DNA of 44,954 nt from an uncultured Lachnospiraceae bacterium (lineage in GTDB: Bacteria > Bacillota > Clostridia > Lachnospirales > Lachnospiraceae): assembly GCA_902463835.1 (NCBI GenBank), contig CABQGZ010000001.1, forward strand, positions 1 through 44,954. Reading direction: 5' to 3'. The notes under the pieces are model-generated. The model ran no database searches, was not told where the DNA came from, and was given only the letters and a program-made list of their open reading frames with translations. Numbering within the stretch: position 1 is the first letter of the stretch; every line of letters starts with the position of its first letter. Shown here piece after piece: positions 1 through 42,519 of the stretch. Made by a program: the position numbers and the translations under genes.

Positions 1-47
1 GTGTAAAATGTGTGTTACAAAACAAAAACAGAACGAGGAGGAAACAA

Positions 48-4987: not shown

Positions 4988-5992
4988 ATGACACCAAGAA
5001 AATTAGTTTATGCAACATTAGAATTTTGCAACAAAAGCGAGCGGGCGCCGCGGCAGATGTGGACGCTTCCCTGGGCGGAGTGGAACCACGGGGATATGGT
5101 GGCCAGGATTCGGCAGGATTATCCAGACGATATTATAGGAGCGCCCTGTATCCTGCAGACGCCCACCATAGAGGAGGGAGATCCCTATCGCACCGGAGTC
5201 AGCCGGGATGCCTGGGGGTGCATCGTGACCAACATTCACCAGGGAGTCATCGGCGAGGTAAAAGAGGCGTTGGTACAGGATGAGGATTGGGAGGATGTAA
5301 CCAATGTCCATATTCCAAGGGAATGGCTGAGCTTTGACCGGGATGCGGTGAATGGTTTTTGCCGGGATACAGATCGATTCGTGACCTGCGGCTGTTGCCC
5401 GCGGCCTTTCGAACAGCTGCAGTTTATCCGGAAGACGGAGGAGCTGTATATGGATCTGATGGATATTCCAGAAAAGCTGAGAGTGTTTATGGGTGAGGTG
5501 CATACATTTTACTGTGAGCTCTTAGAAGAATGGGCCAAAACAGAGGTGGACGCCTTAACCTTCATGGATGACTGGGGCGCGCAGAAAAGTCTGCTGATTC
5601 ATCCGAATCTGTGGCGGGAGTTGTTCCGGCCCATGTATAAGGACTATATTGATATCGCAAAGCGCCACGGGAAGAAGATATTCATGCATTCAGACGGATA
5701 TATTCTGGATATACTTCCGGATCTGGCTGAAATGGGACTGGACGCCATTAATTCACAGATCTTCTGTATGGGTGTGGAGAAGCTGGAGCCTTTGGCAGGG
5801 AAGATTACCTTCTGGGGCGAGATGGATCGGCAGCATCTGCTGGTGGAAGGCACCAAAGAGGATATTCAGAAAGCAGTGGAGAAGGTGAGAGAAACCCTGT
5901 GGAAGGACGGCGGATGCATTGCGCAGTGCGAGTTTGGACCGGGGGCAAAGCCGGAGAATGTGTATGAGGTATTCCGTTCGTGGAATAAATAA
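4988..5992 (+). CDS. Uroporphyrinogen-decarboxylase (URO-D)/MtaA-like family protein 1, cytoplasmic
   Basis: 334-aa ORF. GAGGAG lies ~8 nt upstream of ATG 4988 (the ATG at 4984 hits a stop after 2 codons). No signal peptide. Paralogous to 30322..31296 and 31326..32354. 'IFMHSDGYILDILPDLAEMGLDAINS' matches the URO-D-fold 'H-x-[DC]-G...G.D' barrel strand. Confidence 0.8.
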   Translation: MTPRKLVYATLEFCNKSERAPRQMWTLPWAEWNHGDMVARIRQDYPDDIIGAPCILQTPTIEEGDPYRTGVSRDAWGCIVTNIHQGVIGEVKEALVQDEDWEDVTNVHIPREWLSFDRDAVNGFCRDTDRFVTCGCCPRPFEQLQFIRKTEELYMDLMDIPEKLRVFMGEVHTFYCELLEEWAKTEVDALTFMDDWGAQKSLLIHPNLWRELFRPMYKDYIDIAKRHGKKIFMHSDGYILDILPDLAEMGLDAINSQIFCMGVEKLEPLAGKITFWGEMDRQHLLVEGTKEDIQKAVEKVRETLWKDGGCIAQCEFGPGAKPENVYEVFRSWNK

Positions 5993-18523: not shown

Positions 18524-18557
18524 TCCTGTACCTTCCCAGAAATGGAGGAATATAGCT

Positions 18558-21500: not shown

Positions 21501-24500
21501 GAATTCATTGATCTGCGTGAAAATGTGGCAGCGTGGTTTGCACCGGAGGGATATTCCGAGCGCCACGAATCCACCACCGGCACAACGCCTTACTTCCTCT
21601 CCGGATATGGATACGAGGATGACGGAAAGGGCAACTATGCCAATTTTGCTTTCCCCAATGCTAACATCGGACCACGGTGGGGATATGCCACCAGCAGAGA
21701 CAACAATCTCTACCTGCACATTATGGAAGGCCCGGACAGCAAGATCGGATTCAGGGCCATCGAGAACAAGGTTTTAACCATTTCACCGGTAGCAGACAAG
21801 GTGACATCTGTTATCTGGCTGAACCGGGATGAGGAGATTGCGTCCTTCACCCAGGAAGGAGACACGCTGACCATTGATCTGAGCGGCGTGGAGGAAGATA
21901 AGGTTGACACCATCATCAAGGTTGTGACAGACAGCCAGGTGCGCAAGTACAAGCTGACCAACCTCTATCTGAAGGGAATTCCCACAGAGGACGGGAAGGT
22001 GCAGCTGGATGTGGAAGGATATATGACATATCCGGCACTGAAAGCAAGTCTGGAAAAGGTTATCTACAGCGTATCCAGCGGCGTCGTGACGGTGGATAAG
22101 AACGGTCTTGTGAGCCCGGTAAGCGACGGAACAGCCGTTGTGACAGTGAGCGGAACTTATGAAGGTACGACCGTGAGCGAGGATATCACCATCAGCGTCA
22201 AGGATGGCGCGGCATTTGTGGATGATGAGATCACCAGTGTGGCGCTGCATGTGGGAGAACGTGAGGTCTACGGTGAGGTTTCCTGCTATGGCATGTATGA
22301 CTTATCCTTAGAGGGACGTTCTGTGGACGGCGGAGCTACCGGTTTAAATGACGCGGAAATCATCTGGCATACCGGAACCGTGGATCTGAAGGGCGGCGAT
22401 AAGTATGTGCCCATTAAGATCACGGAGAACGACACGTTGATCGTCGGAAACGGGAAGCTGATTCCAAAGCCGGTACAGGAGCTGACCCGCGCCGTTGTGT
22501 GGGCGGAGGTAAAGAAGGACGGTACGACATATACTTCCAACAGAGTATATCTGGATCTGCGCCCGGCGGCAAATCTGTCAGGGGAAGCAAAGATCACTGC
22601 AAGCGCCAATGAAGCGTCTGTTGACAAGATAAAGGACGGGCAGATCGTAAATGGAACCACACACGACGATTCCAAATGGACTGCCGAAGGAAGCGGATGG
22701 ATGACCTTTGAGCTGCCCCAGAAGGCGGATATCTCTGAGATTGACATTTACTACAACACCAAAGATCAGAGCTATGTCAACACGCCTGCGACTATTGAGA
22801 TCCAGACCAGCGAGGACGGGGAAGCATGGACGACCCAGACTACTGCAAATGGGCCCAGCGGAAGCGCATGGTTTGGCTTCTACACTCCATACAAAGTAGA
22901 TTTTAACACGAAATATATCAGATTGCAGTTTACAGGAAGAAACGGTGGAGCCTTCGATATTATGGAAGTGATGCTCATGGGTGAGGATATCAGCAGTGCC
23001 TTGTCCCAGCTTGCATTAGATCCAACAGTATCGGAAGACGGAAAGCGCATCACCATCGACATGACAGGCCTGGATCAGCGAGGCGAGGAAGTCAGTCTGG
23101 AGGGTGCCCAGGTTACCGTGATCAGTGAGGATGAATCCGTTGTCAAGGTAAATGAGGACAATACGCTTGCACCGGTGAATCCCGGAAGAACAAGGATCAC
23201 AGTTCAGGTGATGCAGGCAGTGGTTGCCCAGAGACCGGGATATGCCGAGAACAGCTTCTTCGTAACTGTGAACGAAGCAGGAAAACTGGAATTATTGCCT
23301 TACTTAAGCGCAGTGGAGCTGGCTGTTCCTACCAGAACAGTTTCCTACGGCAAACCTCTTGTGGCGGCTCCGGTAATCAAACTCAGCGACGGAACGACTG
23401 TGGCGGCGAAAGACGCAGAGGTGCAGTATGTGATCGGAGACGAGCGCTTAAGACAGGTAGAAGGAACGAACACCCTTCTTCTTGATGAGGATATTGAAAA
23501 TGGATTTGCCACAACGGTAAAGGCAGTGGTAACTTACGACGGTATTACCGTAGAAAGTGAAGAGATAACAGTTACGGCACTTGGTAGGAATCTTGCGGTG
23601 AGCGCATCAAATGTGACAGTATCTTCCGTGAGAGACAGGAATGGTGTGCCGGATGGAAATAATGTGGATGACCGGTATACGGCAAATAAGGCAGTGGATG
23701 GCAATAAGAATACCTGCTGGGCTGCAAAACAGGCGGATAAATCTCCGTGGATCAAACTGGATTTTGACGCGGAGACAGAGATCGGCGGTGTGAACCTGGT
23801 TGACCGGGGACATGCGGTGAATGCCATTGTGGAAGGACTTCTGGAGTTCTTTGATGCAGAGGGACAGCTGATCTACAGCCAGAAAGTAACAGAGCTTGCA
23901 TGGGATGGTCAGCCGGACAACATAATTACCTTAGACCAGCCAGTGAAGGCATATTCCATGAGATTCACCATTGATCCGGAAGTGAAATATCACCAGGCGA
24001 CTTCTGAGCGTGGTCTGGCAGAGATACAGATTTTTGCACCGGAGATTACAGTTGAGAAAACGGTAGTGGAGACGATCGGAGCAGATGTGACAACGCAGGC
24101 AGGTACGGTGCCTGTTCTTCCCAGCGAAGACATTACGGTTGTGTACAACACGGGTGAGAAGGAACTTGTATCAGTAACCTGGAATACCATCGATAAGGCA
24201 GATGTCGCAGTGCCAGGAACCCTGGCAGTAGAAGGTGTGATCACAGGAACCGACATCAAAGTAAGCGCTAAGGTGACCATAACAGAGAATGAATCTCCGG
24301 AAGAACCGTCGAAATTGTTAGGTCTGCTGGAGCAGGTTTATAACAAGGCGAAGGATCTGAGCACAGACGGCGTGGTAGATTCCGCAGTAGCATTCTTCGA
24401 AAAAGCGCTGGCGGAGGCAAAGGATATCCTTGACAACAGACCGGAGGCTAGCGATGAAGAGATCACGGCTGCCATCGAAAAGCTCTTTGACGCGGTACAT

Positions 24501-25416: not shown

Positions 25417-28400
25417 ATGAGAAAATGGAGGAAGGGCCTGAGCTTTCTTTTGGCGGCCAGTATGCTGGTATCTACGGCATTCGTATCGCCGCAAAGGGTT
25501 CAGGCGGAAACGAAAGAAAATGTTGCGCTGCACAAGACGGTGACCGTTGCGCCCGGCATGCCGGAGGCAGGAAAAGAACTGATCACCGACGGAGCAAAAG
25601 CAAGAGGCTGGGACAAGAGCTATATGTACCATACGTCAGCGGAGGCTGAGGACACGGCGACAAAGCCGTATATCACGATCGACCTGGGGGAGAGCTATGA
25701 TATTGATCAGATTGTGTATTTCGGTGTATGGCCGCCGGATGCAGGATACTATAATACATCCCATAACATGGTGATTCAGGTGTCCAACGATGCAGATTTT
25801 GCAGATGAGACTACAAAAACGGTATACAACACAGATGTGAATAATTTCTTTGGCTTTGGCGCAGGCACGGATGCTGCCGGATTGTACCAGGAGCCAAAGA
25901 ACGGGGAGGACGGCATCAGCGTCGAGTTCCCGACAACCAATGCCCGGTATGTGCGGTACTATCAGCACGGCGCTACCCAGCAGGGGCAGAGCACCAATTG
26001 CTGGCCCAACGCATTGACGGTGGGAGAGCTTGAGGTGTACACAGCCGGCGGAGAAATACCCGTTGTGCAGATCCCGGAGGGAAATGCTGCCTATCAGGCA
26101 GAAGTTACCGGTTCTGCGTTCAACTCCAAGGGGGCGGCCACCAATGGATGGTGGGGCGGTTACGGCCGCAACGATCTCTCCGACCTGACCTGCGGTTCCG
26201 TCACAGATAACTGGAAAGCCCCCAGTGTGAACGAGGACGGCGAACTGGGTGAGCTTGTCTATGTGCAGATGAAGCTGAAAAAAGCACAGGATATCAACAC
26301 CATCCAGATCTGGAGCAAGGGAGGCTTTACGTATCTGGCACAGATCGTTCAGATATCGGAGGACGGGAAGAACTGGACGAATGTGTACAATTCAGACACG
26401 GACAACAAGGCAGGACAGGATCCCTCTGATTCCGGAAAGACCGTCTGTGGAGGCAAGCTGGCGAATGGCACTCTGACCGGAGTGAAGGCGGGTGCGGATG
26501 AAGCCTATGCCGAAAATGGAGCAAAAACCATTGCCTTTGACACGACGAAGGCTCAGTATATCCGCTGGTGGTGCAGCGGCAACAGCACAGGCAACAGTCT
26601 GCCGCAGATGATTCAGCTGCAGGCATATAAGAAATGCATTGTCACCTTCGACTATAGAGATGGCGATAAGACAGAGAAGGTGTCTGTCACGGGCGGAAGC
26701 AACATCTCCAGGCCGGAAACACCCGTTTACTCAGTGGTCGGAAAGCTGTTTGACAGATGGACAGTAAATGAGGTTGGCGGCAAAGCGTGGGATTTTGGTG
26801 ATCCCGTCACCGAGGATATGATGCTTGTTGCCAACTGGATGGATGCGGACATTCATACCGTCACCTTTGACTCAGACGGCGGAACAGAGATCGCTCCGAT
26901 ACAGGTTACGGATAGTCTTGCCGTTGTCAGGCCGGAAAATCCCAGTAAGGAAGGAGCTGTCTTTGCAGGCTGGAAGCTGAATAAAGCGCCTTATAATTTC
27001 GGAAGCCCGGTGACAGGAGACATTACGCTTACCGCCACCTGGGTAGAACCAGCTCAGCCGGATGCGGTAGTGCTTCGTGCGGGTCTGCTGGACATGACCC
27101 TTGACAGCCATGGACAGGTGACGAAGCTTGTGAGCACTTTGGATGGAACAGACTACTATTCGGACGGACCGGATGGAAAATACAGAAGTCTGGTATCTTT
27201 GATCGCGGATTATCATATTGAGACGCCTACCTCTGTCTCCTATGATGAAAACGCAGGAATACTTACCTTTGGATTTGCCTCCATCAATGCGACGGCGGAA
27301 GTAACTGTGAAGAAACAGGGCGACTATACGTCTTTGACACTCTCTAAGGTGGAGAAACCGGACGGCATTTCCATACAGGCAATCCTTTGGGGACCAATCA
27401 AAAATACCATCACCACCGGAGGTCAGACGGTAGGAACCGCTTATGATGAGACATATGCCATCGGTATGCATATGCTGAATACCAAGACCATCGGCGGATG
27501 GCCCATCGAGTATAAGAATGATTTTTATGCGCCGGATCTGCCCACGGTAAACGGCTATGCGGATTCGCGTGTCACAAGAAATATCTATTCCAACACGGCA
27601 GCTTTCTCCACCTGGGGAAGCGCCCTGCAGGCATACACATGGGATTATACAAAGGATACCATGCGGACGATCGCTTATTTTTCGGAGGTAAAGCAAATGC
27701 AGCCCGCTATGACTGGAAAGTATGCGGATGAACTTGCCAGCATGATCGGATCCTCCGTGGCGCTGTATGGAACAAGACGGGACAATATACTGAATGTGAT
27801 ATCGAATATCCAGATCAAGGAGGGATTGCCGCATATCACCATCAATGGCCAGTGGCAGAAGACCTCTGTGGAGACAGGACAGGATTTCCTGGTATTCAAT
27901 GATGCGATCTGGGGACTGGATGTTGTAGAAAATGACGCAAAGATGGCCAACGCAGCCGGGATCAATTACATCTATGGCCAGTATGGCGCAGGCGGCCCCT
28001 GGAACGGTGACGGCTCCTATGAATTTAACGGTCTGTTTGGCGGTTCCGATGAGAATGCCAGGCTGTTGGTTGAAAAAGCTGCGGAATATGATGTGTATGT
28101 GGGTACACACACCCTGTCGAACCTTATCTCCTGGGGCACCAAATACATGACGCCGGAGGCCAGCAGCGCGTTATCCTACGCAGGATTTGCAGGATTGACC
28201 AGGGAGGCGGCAGCCTCGGATACGGAGCTCTATGTGAAGGACGGGCATCCATTCTCAAATGAAGTGGTAGGCGCATCCGGCGGCAGCAGACTTTTAAGAA
28301 TCGACAAAGAGCTGGTAACCTTTACCGATTGTGTTCAGGTAGGGGATGGGGAATGGAAGCTGACAGGCTGTACCCGCGGTGTGAATGGCACAAAGGCGGC

Positions 28401-30261
28401 AGACTACGTTGTCAGTGAGAATGTATATAAGCTCTGGGCTTACTACACATGCCCGGCACTGGGCGGATGGGAGTCCATCGAGCCGATGACTTCCCGTATG
28501 GGTGAAGTATATGGAGATATCGGCATCCACTGTATGTCCTATGATTCCTTTGAATCAACAAAATACTCAGTGTACAGCTCCATGCTTCCCGCAATGTACA
28601 TGAAGAGTGTATATAATGAGGTGAAGGAAGCTGGCAAGGCGGACGGATTCCTCACGGAAGCAAGTGATATGGACACCAATGTATGGGATGTACATTCCAG
28701 AATCAGCTGGGGCGAGTCCAATACACCGATCCATGCCATGATGAATTATCTGAATTACTACGAGCAGAACTTCTTCCCCTGTATGTTGGGATGGATGTAT
28801 GACCACGGAAATCACGGCGGATACGGGAAAGCGCAGCTGCTGATGAATCTGTCCATGAAGGGCGGCTGGAATGCCGGTGCAGGCTGGTATGTGAACCGGA
28901 ACACATTTAATTCTTATCCGTATATGGCGGAAATGCTCAAGACCTGGAACAACGCAATCCAGAAGGGAGCCTTTGTAGTCGGCGGTGAATACACCAAAGA
29001 GCTTCAGAATGAGATGAAAAACGCATGGATAAACGGAAAAGTATGGACCTTGACAGAGACGGTGGCGGACAAGGAATGGACGCTGCAGCAGGTGAATAAG
29101 GCGAATCTGGAAGAGAAAATAGGAGAGCCGGTTACACTGTATGCCACCAATAAGATTGCTGTTGAACAGACGGAAAACGGTGATATCGCAACCAGCGCTT
29201 CCAGGGATTACTCCAGAGTCCACGAGGGTGATGTTGTGACGGTATATGAGCAGGCATTTGACGGTTATCGCATGAAAGCCGGAACCTTGACCGTAACAGG
29301 TGTGGACGGAGCGGCTTGTGATCTGACGCCAGTGGAGGGAGAATCGGGAGCTTATACCTTTACGATGCCAGCCCAGGATGTGACCATCACAGCGGAGTTC
29401 GAGGCGGAGAAGCAGGAGACGGACAAGGCGGATAAATATCTGCTGCAGGCGACTTATGATTATGCCCAGACCTTAAGCACCGACGGTGTGACAGCCAGTG
29501 CAAAAGCGTTCTTTGAGAAAGCGTTGGCAGCTGCAAAGGTCGTTCTAGAGGATGAGGAAGCGGTTCAGGCAGAGGTTGACCAGGCATGGGACAATCTGCT
29601 GAAAGGTATCTGGGGTCTTGGTATTGTAAAAGGTGACAAGACTTATCTGGAACAGCTCATCTGGAAAGCGGAGAGCATGATGCCCAACGCGGACAAGTAT
29701 GTAGAGAGCTATTGGCCGCAGCTGACAGAAGCATTGGAGGCCGGAAAGGGCGTGTTCAATGATGAGGATGCCCTGGATGAGGATATTGAACCTGTGGTAG
29801 ATACACTGCTTAACGCGATACTTGCCCAGCGATTCAAAGCGGATAAGTCCAATCTTCAGGAACTGATCAACAAGGCTTCCGGAATCGACTTGACCCGGTA
29901 TACAGAGGAGAGTGTAAGTGTTCTGAAAGCAGCTATGAGGTCTGCAAAGGCAGTTATGGATGATGTGAATCTGAGTACAGATGACCAGACAAAGGTGGAT
30001 GAGGCAGCAAAAGAGTTAAATGATGCTATTGAGAGACTTGTGAAGGAAGCCTCCGTTGACGGCGATAGCGATGATAAGAACAATACGGAAGAAGGCGGAG
30101 GTAAGAACGGCAGTGCTGGAGACAACAGTAAGCCCAATGCGCCAAAGACGGGTGATCAGAGCGATGGCTTAATTTGGATGTTCCTGGTTATTGCAGCTTT
30201 TGGCATAGCCATGTTGGTTGTGAGAAAGAAGAGAGAAGACAGGAAATATGAAATGATGTAG
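25417..30261 (+). CDS. Giant surface protein E (1614 aa): signal peptide, 2 F5/8 type C modules, 2 Listeria-Bacteroides (Flg_new) repeats, ~690-aa unassigned central region, InlB-B-repeat-like domain, 3 FIVAR-like repeats, APKTG sortase signal
   Basis: AAGGAGAGGAG RBS precedes the start. MRKWRKGLSFLLAASMLVSTAFVSPQRVQAE looks like a signal peptide. 'VTFDYRDGDK...FDRWTV...LVANW' and 'VTFDSDGGTE...FAGWKL...LTATW' (26641-27050) are Flg_new-like. 'VTVYEQAFDGYRMKAGTLTVTG...YTFTMPAQDVTITAEF' is InlB-B-like. The C-terminus is APKTGD, then a TM segment, then RKKREDRK. Confidence 0.9.
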   Translation: MRKWRKGLSFLLAASMLVSTAFVSPQRVQAETKENVALHKTVTVAPGMPEAGKELITDGAKARGWDKSYMYHTSAEAEDTATKPYITIDLGESYDIDQIVYFGVWPPDAGYYNTSHNMVIQVSNDADFADETTKTVYNTDVNNFFGFGAGTDAAGLYQEPKNGEDGISVEFPTTNARYVRYYQHGATQQGQSTNCWPNALTVGELEVYTAGGEIPVVQIPEGNAAYQAEVTGSAFNSKGAATNGWWGGYGRNDLSDLTCGSVTDNWKAPSVNEDGELGELVYVQMKLKKAQDINTIQIWSKGGFTYLAQIVQISEDGKNWTNVYNSDTDNKAGQDPSDSGKTVCGGKLANGTLTGVKAGADEAYAENGAKTIAFDTTKAQYIRWWCSGNSTGNSLPQMIQLQAYKKCIVTFDYRDGDKTEKVSVTGGSNISRPETPVYSVVGKLFDRWTVNEVGGKAWDFGDPVTEDMMLVANWMDADIHTVTFDSDGGTEIAPIQVTDSLAVVRPENPSKEGAVFAGWKLNKAPYNFGSPVTGDITLTATWVEPAQPDAVVLRAGLLDMTLDSHGQVTKLVSTLDGTDYYSDGPDGKYRSLVSLIADYHIETPTSVSYDENAGILTFGFASINATAEVTVKKQGDYTSLTLSKVEKPDGISIQAILWGPIKNTITTGGQTVGTAYDETYAIGMHMLNTKTIGGWPIEYKNDFYAPDLPTVNGYADSRVTRNIYSNTAAFSTWGSALQAYTWDYTKDTMRTIAYFSEVKQMQPAMTGKYADELASMIGSSVALYGTRRDNILNVISNIQIKEGLPHITINGQWQKTSVETGQDFLVFNDAIWGLDVVENDAKMANAAGINYIYGQYGAGGPWNGDGSYEFNGLFGGSDENARLLVEKAAEYDVYVGTHTLSNLISWGTKYMTPEASSALSYAGFAGLTREAAASDTELYVKDGHPFSNEVVGASGGSRLLRIDKELVTFTDCVQVGDGEWKLTGCTRGVNGTKAADYVVSENVYKLWAYYTCPALGGWESIEPMTSRMGEVYGDIGIHCMSYDSFESTKYSVYSSMLPAMYMKSVYNEVKEAGKADGFLTEASDMDTNVWDVHSRISWGESNTPIHAMMNYLNYYEQNFFPCMLGWMYDHGNHGGYGKAQLLMNLSMKGGWNAGAGWYVNRNTFNSYPYMAEMLKTWNNAIQKGAFVVGGEYTKELQNEMKNAWINGKVWTLTETVADKEWTLQQVNKANLEEKIGEPVTLYATNKIAVEQTENGDIATSASRDYSRVHEGDVVTVYEQAFDGYRMKAGTLTVTGVDGAACDLTPVEGESGAYTFTMPAQDVTITAEFEAEKQETDKADKYLLQATYDYAQTLSTDGVTASAKAFFEKALAAAKVVLEDEEAVQAEVDQAWDNLLKGIWGLGIVKGDKTYLEQLIWKAESMMPNADKYVESYWPQLTEALEAGKGVFNDEDALDEDIEPVVDTLLNAILAQRFKADKSNLQELINKASGIDLTRYTEESVSVLKAAMRSAKAVMDDVNLSTDDQTKVDEAAKELNDAIERLVKEASVDGDSDDKNNTEEGGGKNGSAGDNSKPNAPKTGDQSDGLIWMFLVIAAFGIAMLVVRKKREDRKYEMM
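29425..30048 (+). repeat. C-terminal stalk cassette, copy 5 (3 FIVAR-like repeats)
   Basis: KADKYLLQATYDYAQTLSTDGV...FKADKSNLQELINKASGIDLTRYT...ELNDAIERLVKE. Confidence 0.7.
30139..30261 (+). other. Cell-wall sorting signal: APKTG motif, hydrophobic segment, basic tail
   Basis: APKTGDQSDGLIWMFLVIAAFGIAMLVVRKKREDRKYEMM. Confidence 0.75.
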
Positions 30262-30282
30262 ATGAAAATGAAATTATTCGTC

Positions 30283-30310
30283 AGAGAGTGCATTTATGCA
30301 CTCTCTTTTA
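30283..30310 (+). terminator. Perfect 10-bp hairpin with a short T-run between gene E and the downstream operon (partial terminator or attenuator)
   Basis: AGAGAGTGCA (30283-30292), TTTA loop, TGCACTCTCT (30297-30306), then TTTA. The AAGGAG RBS of the next gene follows immediately. Confidence 0.5.
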
Positions 30311-30321
30311 AGGAGCTTATC

Positions 30322-31296
30322 ATGACAGAAAGAGAACGTTTTATCAAAACCTTAAAGTGTGAAAAAATCGGGGGACGTGTACCGCATTTTGAACTGGTAT
30401 TTTTTCTTACGATGGAGGCTTTTGGCAAGATGCATCCCCAGCATCGGCTTTATAACCAGTGGAATCAGATGAGTTATCAGGAACAGAAATGCCAGATTAG
30501 TGATATTGCGGATGTACTCATTGATACAGCCAGAAAGTATAATCACAGCGCAATTTTTGTGCAGACAAACCTCCAGGGTGTGGATAACATACAGTGGATT
30601 CTTGAGACCATCCGGGAAAAATCCGGCGATGAATATTATCTGATGATGCACGGGGATCCTACCTGGGCCATTCCCGACGGAGATTCTATGATGGATTTTG
30701 CCGTACAGATGCTGGAGGAGCCGGAGAAGCTCAATGAGATTTCCAGGCAGCGGGTGGAGGAACATTATCAGCTTGCCAGGGAACTGGATCAGAGAGGCCA
30801 TTTGCTGGATGGGTTCACCCTATGCTCTGATTACTGCTTCAATGTCAATCCATTTTTTGCGCCGGAGCAGTTTGCGGAACTGGTAGCGCCGTATTTGAAA
30901 GAAATCATTGATGCCTACCGGGATATGGGATATTACACGATCAAACATACCGACGGAAATATTATGCCCATATTGGATCAGATTGCAGCCTGCAGACCGG
31001 ACGCCATACATTCTTTGGATCCCCAGGGGGGCGTCAGTATTCCAAGGGTTCGGGAAATTGTAGGAGACAAGATTGCACTGGTTGGAAATGTGAACTGCGG
31101 TCTGCTGCAGACTGGAACCGATGAGGAATGTGATGCGGATGTGATGCGTTCACTGCGGGAAGGAATGGCAGCTGGAAAAGGATATATTTTTTCCACATCG
31201 AACTGCGTCTATACGGGAATGCCTCTGAAGCGGTATGAGCGGATGCTGGAGCTGTGGCAAAAATATGGTGATTATTCGATAGAGTCTAATAGATAA
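30322..31296 (+). CDS. URO-D/MtaA-like family protein 2, cytoplasmic
   Basis: AAGGAG (30310-30315) lies 6 nt before ATG 30322; the upstream part of the ORF from 30262 overlaps the hairpin. 'ERERFIKTLKCEKIGGRVPHFE' has an MtaA/URO-D-like N-terminus. 'IKHTDGNIMPILDQIAACRPDAIHSLDP' is present (HTDGN at 30946-30960). Confidence 0.85.
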   Translation: MTERERFIKTLKCEKIGGRVPHFELVFFLTMEAFGKMHPQHRLYNQWNQMSYQEQKCQISDIADVLIDTARKYNHSAIFVQTNLQGVDNIQWILETIREKSGDEYYLMMHGDPTWAIPDGDSMMDFAVQMLEEPEKLNEISRQRVEEHYQLARELDQRGHLLDGFTLCSDYCFNVNPFFAPEQFAELVAPYLKEIIDAYRDMGYYTIKHTDGNIMPILDQIAACRPDAIHSLDPQGGVSIPRVREIVGDKIALVGNVNCGLLQTGTDEECDADVMRSLREGMAAGKGYIFSTSNCVYTGMPLKRYERMLELWQKYGDYSIESNR

Positions 31297-31325
31297 AAGA
31301 AAGTTTCGCTGGAGGAGAGCATGAA

Positions 31326-32354
31326 ATGAGAACATTGACACGAGAAGAAGTAAAAAATGTGATAGAAGGAAAAGGAAGAGCGGAACGAATCCCGCTGCTG
31401 TATGATCTGTGGATCTATAATAACATGTTTGGAGAGGATGAGAAGATCTATCAGGAGTGGCAGAGACAGTATCCCTGCGATGTGGATGAAGTGTTTTTGA
31501 ATATGCCGGGAATGACGGAGGGGCCGGCGGAGGATCCGGCATTTTTCTGGGCGCCGCCGGGAGCAAGAAGCCAGGAAGGAAAAGGATTGGATGCCCAGTG
31601 TGTACTGGAGGACTGGGAGAATGAGGAGGAGGTAGAGACTTTCTTTCAGACATTTCCGGATCCGGAATCACCGGCACTTATCACCTGTGAGAAGGAAAAG
31701 GATGGGCGGTATCTTCTGGGGCGTTGGTGGTATTGTTTTTTTGAACGGCTCTGGTCCTTGCGGGGGATGGAGAATGCATTGACTGATTTTTTCCTGTATC
31801 CAGACGAGGTACACCGACTGTTCTCCAGATTGACCGATTTCTATATGAGATGCATGGAGCGGGCCAAGGAAGCCTGGGATGTGGACGGTTTCTTTGTGTC
31901 GGATGATATCGGAACCCAGACAGGTCCCTTTTTCTCACTGGAAATCTTCCGGGAGTTCTTTAAGCCTTATTATAAGAAGCTGATCGACAAGGCTCATGAG
32001 CTGGGAACGCATTTCTGGCTTCACAGCTGCGGCAATATACAGATATTCCTGCCGGAATTCATTGAGATCGGACTGGATGTGATTCATCCCATCCAGAAGA
32101 ACACTATGAAGGAAGAGGAGATCGCAAAAGAATTTGGCAGCCAGATCTGCATCCTTGCGGGATTTGAGGTACAGCGTCTGATGGCGTTTGGGACAGTGGA
32201 AGAGGTGAAGGAGGAAGTGAATTTTCTGGTGAAGACCTATGACCGGCTGGAGGGACATCTGATGCTGACCATGGGGAATGGTTCTACCCCGGACTGGAAG
32301 ATAGAGAATCTGGATGCGGTATATGAGGCATCTATGAAAGCTTTAGGAGACTGA
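31326..32354 (+). CDS. URO-D/MtaA-like family protein 3, cytoplasmic; retains an H-x-C-G motif
   Basis: GGAGGAG (31311-31317) lies 8 nt before ATG 31326. 'FWLHSCGNIQIFLPEFIEIGLDVIHPIQ' (HSCGN at 32022-32036) resembles the zinc-site strand of MtaA/MT2-type methyltransferases. Paralogous to the two other URO-D-like ORFs. Confidence 0.85.
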   Translation: MRTLTREEVKNVIEGKGRAERIPLLYDLWIYNNMFGEDEKIYQEWQRQYPCDVDEVFLNMPGMTEGPAEDPAFFWAPPGARSQEGKGLDAQCVLEDWENEEEVETFFQTFPDPESPALITCEKEKDGRYLLGRWWYCFFERLWSLRGMENALTDFFLYPDEVHRLFSRLTDFYMRCMERAKEAWDVDGFFVSDDIGTQTGPFFSLEIFREFFKPYYKKLIDKAHELGTHFWLHSCGNIQIFLPEFIEIGLDVIHPIQKNTMKEEEIAKEFGSQICILAGFEVQRLMAFGTVEEVKEEVNFLVKTYDRLEGHLMLTMGNGSTPDWKIENLDAVYEASMKALGD

Positions 32355-32355
32355 C

Positions 32356-35300
32356 ATGCAAAAAAACTTTTTAGCCATTGAAAAATTTCAGAGACGTGTG
32401 GAGGAACTGTGCGAGAGGAGATACTTTTCCAGACAGAGTATCGCGCCCTTTGTCTCCATGCCGGGGTCTTGTCCGGCGGATGAGGCCTATCATGAGATCC
32501 CGGAAAAAATAGAGGGAGAGGCCTTTGGACTGGACGATATGTTCAGCGGCCGGGATTGTTATCTCTGGCTGGAGAAGCGCTTGTGTCTGCCAGAGCCCAG
32601 AGAGGATAGCCAGGTGGCAATACTTTTTGATATGAGTGAAACCGGGTCAGGCGGCAGAAGTGCGGAAGGCTTGCTCTATGTAGATGGAATCTGCTATCAG
32701 GGGATCGATGCCAATCACCGGGAGGTGATTTTTACAGAGGAGGCGGGGAAGGAGGTGCGGCTGACCTTCCTGCTGTGGACCGGTCTGGAGGAGGGCGGCT
32801 CCAGGAAGAACATGCATCACCGGCTTAAGCAGGCGGATATCGCATATCTTCATAAGAAGACAGACGAACTGTATTATTATGGCAGGGCCATCACCGGAAC
32901 ACTGGAGCTGCTTGGAGAGGAGAACGAGAATTATCAGAATCTGATTGCGGTCCTGGAGCGGGCATTGCGGTGTATTGACTGGGACAGTGAGCGTTTCTAT
33001 GAATCGGCAGATCAGGCCTGGCAGGTATTGATGAAGGAGCTGAACCGACTGGAAAAGCACACGGAGGTGACGGTACATGCGGTAGGTCATACCCACATTG
33101 ATCTGGCCTGGCTGTGGAGATTGAAGCATACAAGAGAGAAGGCTCAGCGCTCTTTTTCCACGGTGCTGCATCTCATGGATCAGTATAGAGAATACAGGTT
33201 CCTTCAGAGCCAGCCCCAGCTGTACAAATTCGTAAAAGAGGATAATCCCAAGCTGTATGAGAGAATCCGGGCGAAGATTCAGGAAGGAGCCTGGGAGCCG
33301 GACGGCGGTATGTGGGTGGAAGCGGACTGCAACATCCCCTCCGGGGAATCCCTGGTGCGCCAGTTCCTGTATGGAACACGGTTCATGGAGCAGGAGTTCG
33401 GGAAAAAATGTGAATTCCTGTGGCTTCCGGACGTGTTTGGCTACAGCTGGGCTTTGCCCCAGATTCTAAAGCAGTGTGAGATCGATACGTTTATGACCAT
33501 CAAGATTGGCTGGAACCAGTATAATACCTTTCCCTGCGATCTGTTCAAGTGGAGAGGCATGGACGGAACAGAAATACTTACTTATTTTATCAGCACTCCA
33601 GACGATGGGGAGCCGGATGAGGTGAGAAGTTCCACCTACAACGGAGTCATCACGCCCTATACCGTGAAGAAATGCTGGAAGCGGTTCAAGAACAAGGAAT
33701 TGAGTAAGGATGTTTTATTTGCCTTTGGGTATGGGGACGGCGGCGGAAGCGCCAACCGGGATATGCTGGAGCTTGGAAGAGCCATTGACCGTCTGCCGGG
33801 CATGCCTCATGTGAAGCAGTCCCCAGCGGGTGAATTCTTCCGTAAGATCCACGATCAGGTGGAGCATACCGATCAATATGTGCACACCTGGGACGGAGAG
33901 CTGTATTTTGAACTTCACAGGGGAACCTACACCTCCCAGAGCAGAACAAAGCGTTACAATCGCAGACTGGAGCATATGCTGGGGCAGAGTGAGTGGCTGT
34001 CGTCCCTGCTATATTTGCAAAAGGGTGAATATCCTTGGCAGGAGCTTCATGACAGCTGGGAATGTGTGCTGCTGCACCAGTTCCACGATATTATTCCGGG
34101 TTCCTCCATTCATGAGGTATATGAGGATGCCCAAAAGAGCTACCGGCGCACAGAGGAGCAGACGGCACTGGTGTGCGAAAAGGTGCTGGAAGGATTGAAA
34201 AAAGAGACAGAGAATACATACGGCATATATTCCGCCAACAGCTTTGGTGGAATGGAGTTGGTGAATATTCCGGAGAAAAGAAACGGAAGCTTTTACGATG
34301 CAGAGGGAAATCAATTGGAAGCCACAGGGAGCCCAGAGGGCTATGACGTGTGGATGGATGTGAAGCCTTTATCGGTGAGCAATATCACATTCGTGCCGGA
34401 GGACGGAGAGAATAAGAAAGCGGAGCCGGAAGATGCTTTAAAGAATTGGAGCATCCAGATGGATGAAAAACGGATAGAGACACCCTTCTATTCCATGGAA
34501 TGGGACGGGAGTGGAAACTTGATCCTGCTGTATGACAAGGAGGAGAGGCGATCGGTACTGGGCGCTGGCGGCAGGGGAAACGTGCTGGAGGTATACGAGG
34601 ATAAGCCGCTGCATTTTGACGCCTGGGATCTCGATATTTTCCATCTTCAGAAGAAGGAGATCATGGAGCTTGCGAAACCGGCAGAGCTGGCGGAACAGAA
34701 TGAGCGGAAAGCGGTGCTTCGATTCACGTATCTTTACCGGAAGTCCAGGGTGATTCAGGATATGGTGGTATACCGGGATTCCAGAAGGATTGATTTCCGA
34801 ACCCAGGTGGACTGGCAGGAGGATCACAGAATCCTGAAAGCGGCCTTCGACACGGATATCCGAAATACGGAGGCGGCCTATGACAGCCAGTTTGGCCATG
34901 TAAAACGTCCCACCCACTGGAATCAGAGCTGGGATCTGGCCAGATTCGAGGTCTGCGGGCATAAGTGGGCGGATCTGTCTGAGACAGGTTACGGCGTCAG
35001 TCTCCTGAATGATTGCAAATATGGCTACAGTGTCAAGGATAGTACTATGCGGATCAGCCTTCTGAAGAGCGCCAAGTACCCGGATACGGAGGCGGATATG
35101 GGAACGCATCTTTTTACCTACAGTCTCTATCCTCACAGAGGGGATCTGACCCAGGGCGGAACCATAGCGGCGGCGAATCAGCTGAATCACCCGGCACAGG
35201 TGCTGAAAGGGGCATTTGCGGATACAAGACTGCTGCTGGGACTTGTGGGAGAGGGCGTCATGATCGACGCCGTCAAGAAGGCGGAGGATGAGGAATGCCT

Positions 35301-35484
35301 GATCGTGCGGCTGCACGAGTGTCTGGGCGGAAGACGCAGAGTGATCCTGTATTCGGAGTATCCCATACAGAAAATGATCCCCTGCAACATGTTGGAGCAT
35401 GTGTGTGGAGAGCCTCTGACCGGAGTGCGGGTGGAAGTGGAGTTTGGGCCTTTTGAGATAAAGAATTTCAAAATATTATTATGA
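32356..35484 (+). CDS. GH38 alpha-mannosidase, cytoplasmic (1042 aa)
   Basis: 'AVGHTHIDLAWLW' (33088-33117 covers HTHIDLAWLW), 'FLWLPDVFGYSWALPQIL' (nucleophile-region motif), 'ELYFELHRGTYTSQ' and 'HQFHDIIPGSSI' are classic GH38 signatures. The start lies 1 nt after the previous stop. No signal peptide. Confidence 0.93.
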   Translation: MQKNFLAIEKFQRRVEELCERRYFSRQSIAPFVSMPGSCPADEAYHEIPEKIEGEAFGLDDMFSGRDCYLWLEKRLCLPEPREDSQVAILFDMSETGSGGRSAEGLLYVDGICYQGIDANHREVIFTEEAGKEVRLTFLLWTGLEEGGSRKNMHHRLKQADIAYLHKKTDELYYYGRAITGTLELLGEENENYQNLIAVLERALRCIDWDSERFYESADQAWQVLMKELNRLEKHTEVTVHAVGHTHIDLAWLWRLKHTREKAQRSFSTVLHLMDQYREYRFLQSQPQLYKFVKEDNPKLYERIRAKIQEGAWEPDGGMWVEADCNIPSGESLVRQFLYGTRFMEQEFGKKCEFLWLPDVFGYSWALPQILKQCEIDTFMTIKIGWNQYNTFPCDLFKWRGMDGTEILTYFISTPDDGEPDEVRSSTYNGVITPYTVKKCWKRFKNKELSKDVLFAFGYGDGGGSANRDMLELGRAIDRLPGMPHVKQSPAGEFFRKIHDQVEHTDQYVHTWDGELYFELHRGTYTSQSRTKRYNRRLEHMLGQSEWLSSLLYLQKGEYPWQELHDSWECVLLHQFHDIIPGSSIHEVYEDAQKSYRRTEEQTALVCEKVLEGLKKETENTYGIYSANSFGGMELVNIPEKRNGSFYDAEGNQLEATGSPEGYDVWMDVKPLSVSNITFVPEDGENKKAEPEDALKNWSIQMDEKRIETPFYSMEWDGSGNLILLYDKEERRSVLGAGGRGNVLEVYEDKPLHFDAWDLDIFHLQKKEIMELAKPAELAEQNERKAVLRFTYLYRKSRVIQDMVVYRDSRRIDFRTQVDWQEDHRILKAAFDTDIRNTEAAYDSQFGHVKRPTHWNQSWDLARFEVCGHKWADLSETGYGVSLLNDCKYGYSVKDSTMRISLLKSAKYPDTEADMGTHLFTYSLYPHRGDLTQGGTIAAANQLNHPAQVLKGAFADTRLLLGLVGEGVMIDAVKKAEDEECLIVRLHECLGGRRRVILYSEYPIQKMIPCNMLEHVCGEPLTGVRVEVEFGPFEIKNFKILL

Positions 35485-35523: not shown

Positions 35524-37616
35524 ATGAACCCACTAATTTTGAGACAAGGGGTGTGCGATCCCCATATTCATATATTTCAGAGCAGAGCATATCTGTACGC
35601 GACCCACGACGCACCGGGCTATACCGAGGGCTTCTGCATGAAGGATTGGCAGATCTGGTCCTCCAAGGATCTGATCGACTGGCAGCTGGATGCGGTCATT
35701 GATCCGAAAGAATTCTACTGCGGCAGCATGGATCAGTGCTGGGCCGTAGATGCCGCGTATAGAAACGGAACTTATTACCTATATTTTTCCACCGGGGACT
35801 GGGGCGTTGGCGTGGCGGTATCGGAGCATCCTGCTGGCCCATTCCGGGATGTCCTGGGGCATGCCCTGGTGGACTATGACACGTATCCCCAGAATATTCA
35901 GAAATGGGATCCCCATGTGTTTGTGGACGAGGATGGGGAAGCTTATCTGGTGGTGGGAACGTGTCTTCAGAAAGAACCATGGGATTGCTATCTGATCGCA
36001 AGGCTTGGGGAGGATATGATTCATCTGGCGGAACCGCTCCGGAGAATCGAGTATGTGGGGAATCCCTGTCCGGAGGACAAGCCTTCCATTCATAAGGAAA
36101 ATGGAATCTATTATCTCACACATGCGTCCTACTATGCAGTGTCTGACAATGTGTATGGCCCTTATATCCATCGGGGACATATCGGCTTTACCAATGACCA
36201 CGGTTCCTTTTTCACTTACCACAATCAGACGTATTTTGCGGCGGGAGGAATGGACAATCCCAACCGCTATATGAGAGCCTCCTATCTTGTGCCCTGCCAT
36301 TATCGGGAAAACGGAGACATTGTGATAGAACAGGAGATCGCGGCCTATGGGTGCGGTCAGTATGACGCCGCATGGGAGCGCATCGAGGCGCGATGGTATT
36401 ACGCAGCGGCAAGAGCATGCAAAAAGGAAAAAGAGAACGGAGCTATTGTCACAGAACTGCGGGATGGGGAGTATCTGTATTTCCCGGAGATACTGAATCT
36501 GGAGGAAAATACGCGGATGCAGATATGCGCCGCCGGAAAGGCTCATGCAAGAATGTGGATCTACGAGGATTCTCCCGAGGGTAAGCTGCTGGGAAACTGC
36601 GACCTGGAGGGCGGAGCGGAAATGGCGGGGATGCACGAGAAACACCTGTCCGGCAAGGAAGGAATATATGAATGCACCCTATCCTGCGAGGTCGGAAAAA
36701 AGGCTCTCTATCTTCTGATGGAGGGAGAGGCGGAACTCAGCTGGTTTTCCTTTGACAATGGAAAAAAACGCTGTACGGCGCAGCCGTTGTTTTCCAGGCG
36801 GGGGAGAGGCGCCAGCCTTTCCTGGAATGTAAACGGGGCAAATCATCTGATCCTTCGGAATCTGGAGCTGCGGGGCGCCGGACTGGAGGTGTATGCGGAC
36901 GGCGGACAGGGCAAAGATGCAGAGCTGATCATCGATTATTGCTGCCCAAAGGCGGATGCCGCCACAGTTCTGTATATAAACGGAACGGAACAGCAGTCCA
37001 TTGCGTTTCCGGAGACAGAAGCAGGTTTTGGAAAGCTGGTTCATCAGAAACGGGTGAAAACCATGTTAAAGCCGGGGCTCAACAAAATCGGTTTGTGGAC
37101 CAGGGAATATCAGAAGGGAAAGCTGGAGATTGCGCATCTTACCGTGGAGACAGAGAAGAGCTGCTGCAAGGTGTATCCGGCAGCTAATGGAACCCTGTTC
37201 CCTGCGGGAAATGGGTGCTGGGACGGATTGCCCCAGTGGGAGACGGAGCCCTTGGCAGTAAGCGGAAGAATCGTAAAGTATCTGGGTAAGCCAGAGTACG
37301 GTGTTGCCATCCCGCATGTGGATGGCGGAGTGGGCGGCGCTTACGGTCTGGAGATTCATTATTGTTGCGGAGAGCAGGAGGGCTCTGAGTATGAGCTGTT
37401 GGTAAATGGAAAATCCTGCAGTAGGCTGCATTTTCCATTTACTGGGGGCTTTGGAATGGAGCAGATGCAGAACCTCTATACGGAAATAGTACTGGAAAAA
37501 GGAAGAAATAATACGATACAACTGGAGAAGGTCGGAGACTGTGACCAGGGAATCTTTGTGGATGCCTTTGCAGTGATTCCAGTTGATATTGAAAGATTTC
37601 ATCAGGAGAAAGCAGA

Positions 37617-37620
<4 letters not shown>
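35524..37620 (+). CDS. GH43-like five-bladed beta-propeller glycosidase with C-terminal beta-sandwich (CBM6-like) modules, cytoplasmic (698 aa)
   Basis: 'GVCDPHIHIF...YLYATHD', 'WSSKDLIDWQ', 'CWAVDAAYRNGTYYLYFS', 'VGVAVSEHPAGPFRD' and 'PEDKPSIHKENGIYYLTHA' match the GH43 Asp/Asp/Glu motif order. No signal peptide. Confidence 0.75.

Positions 37621-42519
<4,899 letters not shown>

Follow-up and report, generated by a model that had tools for sequence, protein, structure and literature searches.

Three paralogous proteins of the UroD fold, P1, P2 and P3, are encoded in one window (here the whole stretch of DNA analysed, a 44,954-bp contig of an uncultured Lachnospiraceae bacterium), and we give a probability of about one half to the reading that they are cytoplasmic methyltransferases which act through a separate small corrinoid protein (CP) to demethylate O-methylated carbohydrates, and are not decarboxylases. 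The original prediction had suggested, among other roles, the removal or transfer of a sugar substituent such as an O-methyl group, and this option is favoured by the finding that orthologs share operons with genes for CP, RACo and MtaA-like proteins, beside genes for GH38, GH43, GH2 and sugar transporters; nothing was found in support of the decarboxylase or isomerase options that it had also listed.

P2 (324 aa, HTDGN clade) and P3 (342 aa, HSCGN clade), both UroD-superfamily proteins by their Pfam URO-D matches and both candidate corrinoid-dependent methyltransferases, are encoded on the plus strand at 30322..31296 and 31326..32354, and are followed on the same strand by genes for a GH38 alpha-mannosidase-family protein (32356..35484; Pfam Glyco_hydro_38N, 38C and Alpha-mann_mid), a GH43-family protein (35524..37620; Pfam GH43, 92.4 bits), a DUF5054 protein that is a candidate glycosidase (37617..39515; Pfam DUF5054, 146 bits) and, as the final gene of the operon, a GH2 LacZ-type beta-galactosidase (39541..42519; Pfam GH2 domains). 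The intergenic gaps are 29 nt between P2 and P3, 1 nt between P3 and GH38, which confirms the tight linkage claimed for these two genes, 39 nt between GH38 and GH43, -4 nt (an overlap) between GH43 and DUF5054, and 25 nt between DUF5054 and GH2. A convergent gene for an AraC-family (HTH_18) regulator, identified by Pfam, occupies the contig end (42605..44923, minus strand). The third paralog, P1 (334 aa, HSDGY clade, Pfam URO-D; 4988..5992, plus strand), is flanked by surface-enzyme genes. By inspection, no N-terminal signal peptide was seen in P1-P3, GH38, GH43, DUF5054 or GH2; each of the five giant neighbouring proteins carries a signal peptide, a PKTGD sortase motif and a membrane anchor. 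The 44,954-bp contig holds no transporter gene, and a tblastn of the window with CP, RACo, DUF2284 and MtaA-like queries gave no match, the contig ending there; the absence of a corrinoid protein and an activase noted earlier for the window is thus borne out. The exact proteins of the window occur on only two contigs, this one and a shorter one. Two minus-strand ORFs of exactly 772 aa each were considered as a related pair and proved to be unrelated, the equal length being a coincidence.

In the ORF list P2 spans 30262-31296, and the original prediction had begun it at the ATG at 30322. We dropped the start at 30262 in favour of 30322, because a ribosome-binding site (AAGGAG) lies at 30311-30316 ahead of this ATG and because the P2 homologs are 319-324 aa long and all start with MT(E/H)RERFIKTL. 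The interval between the surface-protein gene and P2 contains a perfect 10-bp hairpin followed by UUUU (30283..30306, plus strand; -19.4 kcal/mol, z = -2.6 by RNA folding), which fails the T-run rule of the terminator scan and is possibly a weak terminator or attenuator upstream of P2.

All three proteins score above the Pfam URO-D gathering threshold of 23.9 bits (P1 58.7, P2 74.2 and P3 70), the match beginning at residue 146 in P3 and 199 in P2 and covering the C-terminal half only. The best PDB matches found by Foldseek for the AlphaFold models of P3 (pLDDT 91.9) and P2 (pLDDT 83.4) were UROD and MtaA (TM 0.65-0.74, probability 1.00), with a TM of about 0.7 to both for P2 and of 0.67-0.70 to UROD for P3. 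The URO-D (beta/alpha)8 fold that had been proposed therefore stands, on Pfam evidence for P1-P3 and on the structural comparison for P2 and P3, and no protein was placed outside it by the HMM. On the MtaA/CmuA models (TIGR01463, PRK06252) P1 reached 25-29 bits, P2 33-47 and P3 43-52, all far under the NCBIfam cut-offs of 235-244, so the comparison with MtaA and CmuA that had been suggested speaks against an MtaA identity. When family profiles were compared with the PDB, P2 matched CdmB (1.4e-7), MtaA (1.5e-4) and UROD (0.5), P3 matched CdmB (2e-4) and MtaA (0.49), and P1 gave no sequence match; by this weak signal, the sequences of P2 and P3 are closer to CdmB, a donor-side (MTI) enzyme, than to MtaA. 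With a mutual identity of 26-29%, P1-P3 represent three distinct, large, conserved and uncharacterised clades, found in sugar-utilisation loci of gut Clostridia. Homologs number in the thousands (3652 for P1) and fall into no fewer than four UroD clades, those of P1, P2 and P3 and one more, named URODX here, and the carriers of orthologs are gut Lachnospiraceae, Blautia included.

The motifs HTDGN of P2 (residues 209-213, nt 30946-30960, plus strand), HSCGN of P3 (H233-N237, encoded by CAC AGC TGC GGC AAT at 32022-32036, plus strand) and HSDGY of P1 (residues 234-238, nt 5687-5701) were all located where they had been reported, and they cannot be put down to chance, since each is invariant across 20 diverse members of its own family. 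HTDGN of P2 aligns with the HICGN zinc motif of MtaA (4ay7), whose zinc triad we take to be H240, C242 and C319, with the columns checked against 4ay7. In these columns P3 has H233, C235 and N318, P2 has H209, D211 and N294 with C295, and P1 has H234, D236 and C314, the His-x-Cys...Cys triad of the MtaA/CmuA family being incomplete in all three. In P1 and P2 a Cys remains at or beside the third-ligand position, and the middle Cys is exchanged for Asp; C295 of P2, adjacent to the third-ligand column, is invariant in 20 family members. In the P3 family H233, C235, G236 and N237 are invariant, as is N318, which sits in the column of the third zinc-ligand Cys of MtaA. Invariant acidic and His residues are found in all three clades. 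Thus, P3 shares with the acceptor-side (MT2) enzymes MtaA, MtbA and MtsA the UroD fold and an H-x-C-G-N that matches HICGN of MtaA, but differs from them by Asn for the third ligand, and P1 and P2 differ by Asp for the middle Cys. True MtaA-like proteins with the full HNCG...SGCD motif exist as separate genes in related loci, and to our knowledge coenzyme M synthesis is not expected in these bacteria. For these reasons, the invariant Asn and the separate full-motif genes, we rejected the idea that P3 is a true zinc MT2 enzyme of the MtaA kind. The H-x-C motif had been likened to the zinc site of MtaA/MT2 methyltransferases; it does not mark the methyltransferase, because P3 is without the third ligand and the H-x-D paralogs P1 and P2 show the tighter corrinoid linkage. 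By analogy with known donor-side enzymes, some of which use zinc and others not (PMC13222342), the His-x-Cys or His-x-Asp site with its nearby Cys or Asn may hold a putative metal that polarises the ether oxygen.

The evidence that carries the corrinoid part of the reading comes from gene order around orthologs. Gene company of the donor-side type, that is CP, a second methyltransferase and an activase, was found for orthologs in loci L022, L023, L025, L030, L101, L102, L108, L109, L111, L121, L132, L152, L157 and L179. A human-gut contig (L111) has P2 ortholog-CP-MtaA-like-DUF2284-RACo in a single operon; L101 reads P1-like-CP-MtaA-like-RACo-P2, L022 reads P3-GH43-P1-P2-GH38-CP-MtaA-like, and the Blautia schinkii locus (L030) reads ABC-SBP-CP-UroD-P2-GH38-P3-GH43-MtaA-like; in L179 a 67%-identical P1 ortholog comes right after a CP gene. 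On the closest long scaffold (identity 75% for P3, 77% for P2 and 67% for P1) DUF2284-P3 is followed by GH2-GH127-like-GH38-CP-P1-P2 and then by giant FIVAR surface enzymes. A RACo gene lies immediately 5′ of P2 orthologs in six loci (L101, L102, L108, L109, L121 and L126) and is present in 10 of the 80 P2-centred loci (7 of 37 among contigs of at least 10 kb), and it shares first place among the non-UroD neighbour families of P2 with AraC-family regulators. CP was found in 4 of 79 P3-centred genomes, each time with a full-motif MtaA-like gene. No corrinoid genes were found within 10 kb in 75 of 79 P3 loci and in about 70 of 80 P2 loci. Proximity to CP within 10 kb could arise by chance in a few percent of cases in CP-rich genomes of acetogen type, and what counts for the argument is therefore adjacency within one operon, seen in several gene orders: back-to-back arrangements with CP, RACo or DUF2284 on the same strand occur in at least five different gene orders, the closest relative included.

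The MtaA-like genes beside the CPs scored 163-177 bits on the MtaA/CmuA models, against 18-52 for P1-P3 with NCBIfam. When 103 ORFs of 13 corrinoid-linked loci were scanned against Pfam, URO-D was returned 24 times, RACo 8 times, B12-binding 7 times and DUF2284 3 times; no pterin-binding methyltransferase was among the 25 families listed of the 96 matched, so that, among the families listed, the usual bacterial type of acceptor-side enzyme does not recur near orthologs. In L007, a 217-aa gene flanked by two UroD genes was considered as a CP and rejected, as no similarity was found. Complete versions of the system are carried by cultured strains: Blautia schinkii DSM 10518 has CP in its locus, and orthologs are present in Faecalicatena orotica, Faecalicatena contorta and Robinsoniella peoriensis.

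The carbohydrate part of the reading follows the same neighbourhoods. Orthologs lie near AraC-family regulators (the most frequent neighbours of P3 orthologs, at 39 loci), oligosaccharide- and monosaccharide-type sugar ABC transporters, and enzymes comprising GH38, GH43, GH3, GH2, GH42, GH95, GH88, GH39, sulfatases and GFO/IDH/MocA oxidoreductases; several P2 clusters contain monosaccharide-type ABC transporters, sugar-binding regulators and sulfatases. GH43 orthologs adjoin P3 orthologs in L014, L022 and L030, P3 orthologs often stand alone at the 3′ end of glycosidase operons, and a P1 ortholog was found alone with GH42. A fixed pairing of P2 with GH38, P3 with GH43 and P1 with GH42 was considered; it is seen in some loci, but P3 has a range of direct neighbours, GH3 most often, and we do not claim such a pairing.

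On the observed fold, family placement, motifs, operon layout and linkage of orthologs to CP, RACo, DUF2284 and MtaA-like genes, a mechanism can be proposed. The five wall-anchored enzymes would cleave a complex glycan outside the cell, the fragments would be imported, and GH38, GH43, DUF5054 and GH2 would trim them in the cytoplasm. At least one of P1, P2 and P3 would bind a sugar bearing an O-methyl group, or an oligosaccharide that such a sugar caps, and expose the methyl ether to the corrinoid protein in its Co(I) state; the latter would take the methyl group and free the sugar hydroxyl. A second UroD-type enzyme, be it one of P1-P3 or an MtaA-like protein whose gene lies elsewhere, would hand the methyl group to an acceptor, and oxidised corrinoid would be re-reduced by RACo. 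We infer the dependence on corrinoid in the source organism, the methylated carbohydrate as substrate of P1-P3, their metal binding, the methyl acceptor and the assignment of paralogs to the donor or the acceptor side. Against demethylation by P1-P3 stands their weak similarity to any characterised methyltransferase, and no description of corrinoid-dependent sugar demethylation, or of UroD-family genes in glycan loci, was found in the literature searched.

All known donor-side enzymes (CdmB, MtvB, OdmB, VdmB, MtoB and CmuA) belong to the UroD superfamily (PMC13222342). P1-P3 have the fold in common with those acting on chloromethane (CdmB) and aryl methyl ethers (OdmB, VdmB, MtvB, MtoB), the family profiles of P2 and P3 match CdmB best among PDB sequences, and some orthologs of P1-P3 are encoded with a small CP of MtaC/MtbC type, a second methyltransferase and a RACo-type activase. 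However, the similarity to CdmB is marginal (E 1e-7 to 1e-4) and confined to the C-terminal half, CdmB (429 aa) exceeds P1-P3 in length by about 100 aa, the context of P1-P3 is glycan utilisation and not the catabolism of aromatics or halomethanes, their orthologs have a partner methyltransferase that is UroD-type and not pterin-binding, and the proposed substrate, an aliphatic sugar methyl ether, has a much poorer leaving group.

Other explanations account for part of these observations. P1-P3 could be cofactor-independent or simple metal-dependent TIM-barrel enzymes acting on released sugars (as isomerase, epimerase, decarboxylase, esterase or a new glycosidase, for example), the corrinoid genes beside some orthologs being separate, co-located systems. 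The lack of a corrinoid gene within 10 kb in most loci is consistent with this, as are the lone P3 orthologs at glycosidase operon ends, the lone P1 with GH42, the invariant acidic and His residues of all three clades, and weak Foldseek tails to GH10 xylanases, sugar epimerases and class II aldolases. We nevertheless consider it unlikely, given the recurrent back-to-back corrinoid arrangements and the rank of RACo among P2 neighbours; moreover, the sole strong structural or sequence relatives are UROD, MtaA and CdmB, and no glycosidase or isomerase of UroD fold was found in the literature searched. Corrinoid-dependent O-demethylation of methoxylated aromatic aglycones such as flavonoids and lignans, with the glycosidases stripping the sugar, seems to us quite improbable. 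Known donor-side enzymes of the UroD superfamily do demethylate methoxylated aromatics (PMC13222342), the carriers include Blautia and other gut Lachnospiraceae, and no gene family directly adjoins P3 as often as GH3. Yet the locus and its relatives hold at least five giant wall-anchored enzymes of polysaccharide type together with GH38, GH43, GH2 and GH127-like genes, and do not fit small phenolic glycosides; the monosaccharide-type transporters, sugar-binding regulators and sulfatases of several P2 clusters and the marginal similarity to CdmB also argue against aromatic substrates.

A transfer of S- or Se-methyl groups on the model of the mlp clusters of Clostridia, here perhaps with methylthio-sugars as substrates, is in our view very improbable. 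A type 1 mlp cluster comprises at least two Mlps (>25% identity to coenzyme M methyltransferase), a CP and Ram/RACE in co-directional genes within 2 kb, with proposed roles in methyl-selenide recycling or methionine salvage (PMC10418091). The full thiol-activating H-x-C...C motif of the accompanying MtaA-like proteins would suit it, and a folate-type methyltransferase is not recurrent nearby, among the families listed, as in mlp clusters (PMC10418091). The window, however, is without CP or RACo, and P1-P3 score only 18-52 bits on MtaA/MtbA models, against 163-177 for the MtaA-like genes, and diverge far more than the Mlps, whose identity to coenzyme M methyltransferases is about 30%; and the context here is uniformly one of glycan utilisation, whereas sugars and carbohydrates are never mentioned for mlp clusters (PMC10418091). 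That P1-P3 are genuine HemE uroporphyrinogen decarboxylases of tetrapyrrole synthesis is suggested by the Pfam family name and by the automatic annotation of these genes as 'uroporphyrinogen decarboxylase family protein', and we give it practically no credence. HemE has the same overall (beta/alpha)8 fold (TM 0.67-0.74 to the P2 and P3 models). On the hemE equivalog TIGR01464, the comparison with HemE that had been suggested, P2 scored 22.5 bits, P3 18.1 bits and P1 had no hit, against a cut-off of 302.95, which rules this identity out; in addition, the identity to HemE is 11-19%, the N-terminal substrate-binding half goes unrecognised by Pfam in P2 and P3, where the match is limited to the C-terminal half, and the three paralogs are all in sugar operons with haem genes absent nearby.

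Many glycans bear O-methyl sugars: rhamnogalacturonan II contains 2-O-methyl-fucose and 2-O-methyl-xylose, xylans and arabinogalactan proteins contain 4-O-methyl-glucuronate, red-algal galactans 6-O-methyl-galactose, and the N-glycans of algae and invertebrates methyl-mannose, and legumes have methyl-inositols. Marine porphyran degraders solve the same problem, a methyl ether blocking sugar catabolism, with a cytochrome P450 6-O-methyl-galactose demethylase encoded inside a polysaccharide-utilisation locus, a wholly different enzyme and chemistry from P1-P3; its O2-dependent oxidation to formaldehyde is closed to strict anaerobes, and we know of no other route and no described oxygen-free enzyme system for sugar demethylation. 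At somewhat less than even odds, strictly anaerobic gut and environmental Clostridia may have a widespread and undescribed B12-dependent removal of methyl ethers from carbohydrates or cyclitols, built into glycan-utilisation loci, which would unblock methyl-capped sugars for glycosidases and feed one-carbon metabolism, with donor and acceptor enzymes both of UroD type. The demethylation hypothesis is directly testable, since cultured strains carry complete versions. If true, thousands of genes labelled 'uroporphyrinogen decarboxylase family protein' would gain a function, the substrates of corrinoid methyltransferases would be extended by a new class whose chemistry is demanding, an aliphatic ether having a poor leaving group, and gut fibre breakdown would be tied to B12 demand and to methyl-group (acetogenic) metabolism.

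In the window, the UroD-fold genes P2 and P3 (31326-32354, +, as in the ORF list) head a run in the order P2-P3-GH38-GH43-DUF5054-GH2, with gaps of 29, 1, 39, -4 and 25 nt; this spacing makes it likely that the genes from P2 to GH2 are transcribed together, and on inspection none of the six products has an N-terminal signal peptide. P2, listed as 30262-31296 (+), was mended to 30322-31296, since the proposed ATG at 30322 is preceded by AAGGAG (30311-30316) and gives the N-terminus MT(E/H)RERFIKTL present in 20 of 20 homologs of 319-324 aa. Just 5′ of this ribosome-binding site, in the gap that follows the last surface-protein gene, lies a hairpin (30283-30306) with a perfect 10-bp stem, AGAGAGUGCA-UUUA-UGCACUCUCU, followed by UUUU. 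The terminator scan did not accept it; as a weak terminator or attenuator, it could keep transcription of the cytoplasmic operon apart from that of the surface-enzyme genes. By tblastn, the window contains no gene for a small corrinoid protein (CP), the reductive activator of corrinoid proteins (RACo), DUF2284 or an MtaA-like protein. The original prediction was confirmed in the UroD family, the motifs, the single nucleotide between P3 and GH38 and the missing corrinoid genes.

The third paralog, P1 (4988-5992, +), lies among five consecutive giant proteins of 1573-2211 aa (12-4733, 6158-11908, 11987-18481, 18510-25145 and 25417-30261), each with a signal peptide, a C-terminal PKTGD sortase-type motif and a membrane anchor. 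Their recognizable domains are FIVAR, F5/8 type C, beta-helix, DUF7402, Flg_new and weak matches to GH141_M and alpha-L-fucosidase; the greater part of their sequence falls into no known family and may hold new glycosidase families. Two unrelated minus-strand ORFs both encode exactly 772 aa: 8984-11302, antisense within a surface-protein gene, is probably spurious, and 42605-44923 encodes an AraC-family regulator that may run off the contig end.

All three paralogs match Pfam URO-D (P1 58.7, P2 74.2 and P3 70 bits; cut-off 23.9). The AlphaFold models of P3 and P2 are confident (pLDDT 91.9 and 83.4) and find uroporphyrinogen decarboxylases and Methanosarcina MtaA as best PDB matches (TM 0.65-0.74); judged by these models, the UroD fold of both is real. 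Mutual identity is just 26-29%, confined to the C-terminal half, and each paralog has a large, well-conserved clade of its own (984 homologs found for P3, more than 6388, a lower bound, for P2 and 3652 for P1) in which existing names are all automatic. The nearest genome match is Candidatus Caccomorpha excrementavium (Clostridia, chicken gut; P3 82%). In the genome scan, carriers of the P3 family were mainly Lachnospiraceae and Oscillospiraceae, with a few Armatimonadota and Treponema; P2 relatives of at least 54% identity came from gut and many other metagenome assemblies. The paralogs are neither HemE nor MtaA: the NCBIfam hemE model has a cut-off of 303 bits and gave 18-22, and the MtaA/CmuA models gave 25-52 bits against 235-244. 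Membership of type 1 mlp clusters also failed the test applied.

Regarding the metal site, bases 32022-32036 (CAC AGC TGC GGC AAT) encode HSCGN in P3, and the corresponding motifs are HTDGN in P2 and HSDGY in P1. The HICGN and later GCG cysteine of MtaA align to HNCG...SGCD of the true MtaA-like proteins, whose ligand columns are His, Cys and Cys. At these columns P3 has H233, C235 and an invariant N318, P2 has H209, D211 and N294 followed by an invariant C295, and P1 has H234, D236 and an invariant C314. P3 is indeed the sole window paralog with H-x-C, as predicted; the emphasis placed on that motif was not upheld. The MtaA zinc triad is incomplete in all three. It is plausible that each keeps a partial metal site, and we infer a metal role for the motif.

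A P3-family genome scan yielded 79 P3-centred loci, in which ORFs were called and clustered and families counted when within 10 kb; a metagenome scan yielded 80 P2-centred loci, many of them short. CP candidates near P3 orthologs came from a B12-motif search for small proteins, with a fourth locus added by tblastn; one was identified by Pfam and NCBIfam as an MtgC/MtbC-like CP. A CP is present in 4 of the 79 P3-centred loci, and all four carry a separate MtaA-like UroD gene (163-177 bits, full H-x-C...C). The gene orders are SBP-FeADH-P3-MtaA-like-421aa-CP (L025), P3-421aa-MtaA-like-CP (L023), ABC-SBP-CP-UroD-P2-GH38-P3-GH43-MtaA-like (L030, Blautia schinkii DSM 10518) and P3-GH43-P1-P2-GH38-CP-MtaA-like (L022). 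Among the P2-centred loci, CP occurs in 8/80, RACo in 10/80 (7 of the 37 contigs that reach 10 kb), and DUF2284 and an MtaA-like gene in 6/80 each. RACo and AraC-family regulators, at 10 loci each, share first place among the non-UroD neighbour families of P2, and RACo lies directly upstream of P2 in L101, L102, L108, L109, L121 and L126. Two loci stand out for clarity: the human-gut contig L111 has all four components of such a system, in the order GH-like-P2-CP-MtaA-like-DUF2284-RACo, and the order in L101 is GH2...AraC / P1-like-CP-MtaA-like-RACo-P2. In L132, L152 and L157 a CP-MtaA-like-DUF2284-RACo block is near on the opposite strand. The most telling case is the closest long relative, an 84.7-kb scaffold (L179) with 75%, 77% and 67% identity to P3, P2 and P1, where the gene order is a surface-protein gene homologous to the fifth of the window, DUF2284, P3, AraC (opposite strand), an ABC transporter, GFO/IDH, GH2, GH127-like, GH38, CP, P1, P2 and then giant FIVAR/GH141-like surface proteins. 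Within 10 kb, corrinoid genes are missing from the majority of P3- and P2-centred loci, and in CP-rich genomes mere proximity could arise by chance at a few percent; for this reason the weight is put on repeated same-operon adjacency, for which at least five gene orders were seen. Across 103 ORFs from 13 corrinoid-linked loci, Pfam detected URO-D 24, RACo 8, B12-binding 7 and DUF2284 3 times, and the 25 families listed, of 96 matched, included no pterin-binding methyltransferase.

Several further families were observed in these loci. The 421-aa proteins (L023:9694-10959, L025:6391-7656 and about 8 further loci), placed among the P3 ortholog, MtaA-like gene and CP in L023 and L025, have no Pfam match and a faint MtaA match (8.5e-4), and may represent one more UroD-type methyltransferase, of very divergent sequence. 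A 214-216-aa protein, Cys-rich at its C-terminus (HDCRKCPNVHC) and unmatched in Pfam and NCBIfam, is encoded directly 3′ of CP in L025 (8322-8966) and 3′ of the MtaA-like gene at the cluster end in L030 (14220-14870); it may be an accessory, perhaps standing in for DUF2284. The P1-like gene beside CP in L101 (5568-6461) and L102 is about 32 residues short of P1 and lacks H-x-D; an assembly error, a deletion or decay to a pseudogene could account for this. URODX, a fourth UroD clade of sugar loci (about 350 aa; L030:4689-5741, L015:14378-15430, L017:11092-12150, L108:3725-4771, L121:7167-8273), is absent from the window, has HSCGK and, as in P3, Asn at the third-ligand column in the members checked, and often neighbours P2, RACo or CP. 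Several clusters combine P2-P1-like-URODX with a monosaccharide-type ABC transporter.

The UroD superfamily includes the known donor-side methyltransferases (MTIs) CdmB, MtvB, OdmB, VdmB, MtoB, CmuA, MecE and MecC, of which only some contain zinc (PMC13222342). In profile comparisons P2 and P3 are nearest to CdmB, an MTI (1.4e-7 and 2e-4, against 1.5e-4 and 0.49 for MtaA), and the MtaA-like genes beside CPs match MtaA at 3e-22. Membership of P1-P3 in the broad MTI group is plausible, if weakly supported by sequence, and the simplest assignment would make P1, P2, P3 and URODX donor-side and the MtaA-like protein acceptor-side. L179, L108, L109 and L121 have no MtaA-like gene near, their only UroD genes beside CP or RACo being P1 and P2 or P2 and URODX, and P2 is the most conserved clade, with variable partners; on these grounds P2 might instead be the acceptor-side enzyme.

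The suggestion that these proteins remove a methyl substituent is supported by the comparative evidence on orthologous loci, and we put at about 0.7 the probability that P1-P3 are components of a corrinoid methyl-transfer system. What is shown comprises the fold, the clades, the motifs, the operon layout and the gene linkage at orthologous loci; for this organism, we infer corrinoid dependence, substrate class and methyl acceptor. Wall-anchored enzymes would fragment a complex glycan, and the imported fragments would be trimmed by GH38, GH43, DUF5054 and GH2; at least one of P1, P2 and P3 would offer Co(I)-CP an O-methylated sugar, whose methyl group the CP would take, a second UroD-type enzyme would hand it onward and RACo would repair oxidised cofactor. 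We hold the odds on this full mechanism to be even, and an O-methylated carbohydrate as substrate is a tentative choice, slightly below even. In its working the scheme would resemble the acetogen O-demethylase and Cdm systems and the mlp clusters (PMC10418091); in the open-access literature and bioRxiv we found no paper that ties genes of the UroD family to glycan loci or reports sugar demethylation by a corrinoid-dependent route.

The P3-centred loci are rich in carbohydrate functions: AraC-family regulators (39/79), two families of sugar ABC permeases (24/79 and 21/79), solute-binding proteins (17/79), GFO/IDH/MocA oxidoreductases (15/79), GH38 and GH3 (12/79 each), sensor kinases (11/79), GH43 (9/79), and GH2 and glycyl-radical enzymes (7/79 each). 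DUF5054 proteins (window 37617-39515) and a separate 640-750-aa family without Pfam match adjoin UroD paralogs in many loci (L014:14101-16029, L022:2804-5029, L004:3316-5562) and are candidate undescribed glycosidase families. Homologs of P1, P2 or P3 in L006, L037, L155, L174 and L109 repeatedly have nearby genes for pyruvate-formate-lyase-like glycyl radical enzymes and their activases, and for sulfatases together with anaerobic maturase-like radical SAM proteins, a hint that some loci act on sulfated or deoxy sugars. At least two UroD paralogs occur in 31 of the 79 loci, and the trio P1-P3-P2 is seen again in Eisenbergiella-type loci, Lachnospiraceae bacterium CE91-St56 and other loci. Close P3 homologs are end genes of GH88/GH95/SASA and GH39/GH2/GDSL operons, and Faecalicatena contorta has a unit, AraC / P1-GH42, built on a P1 homolog. 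The clades of P1-P3 therefore belong, as dedicated parts, to carbohydrate-utilisation loci in general rather than to any single glycan system.
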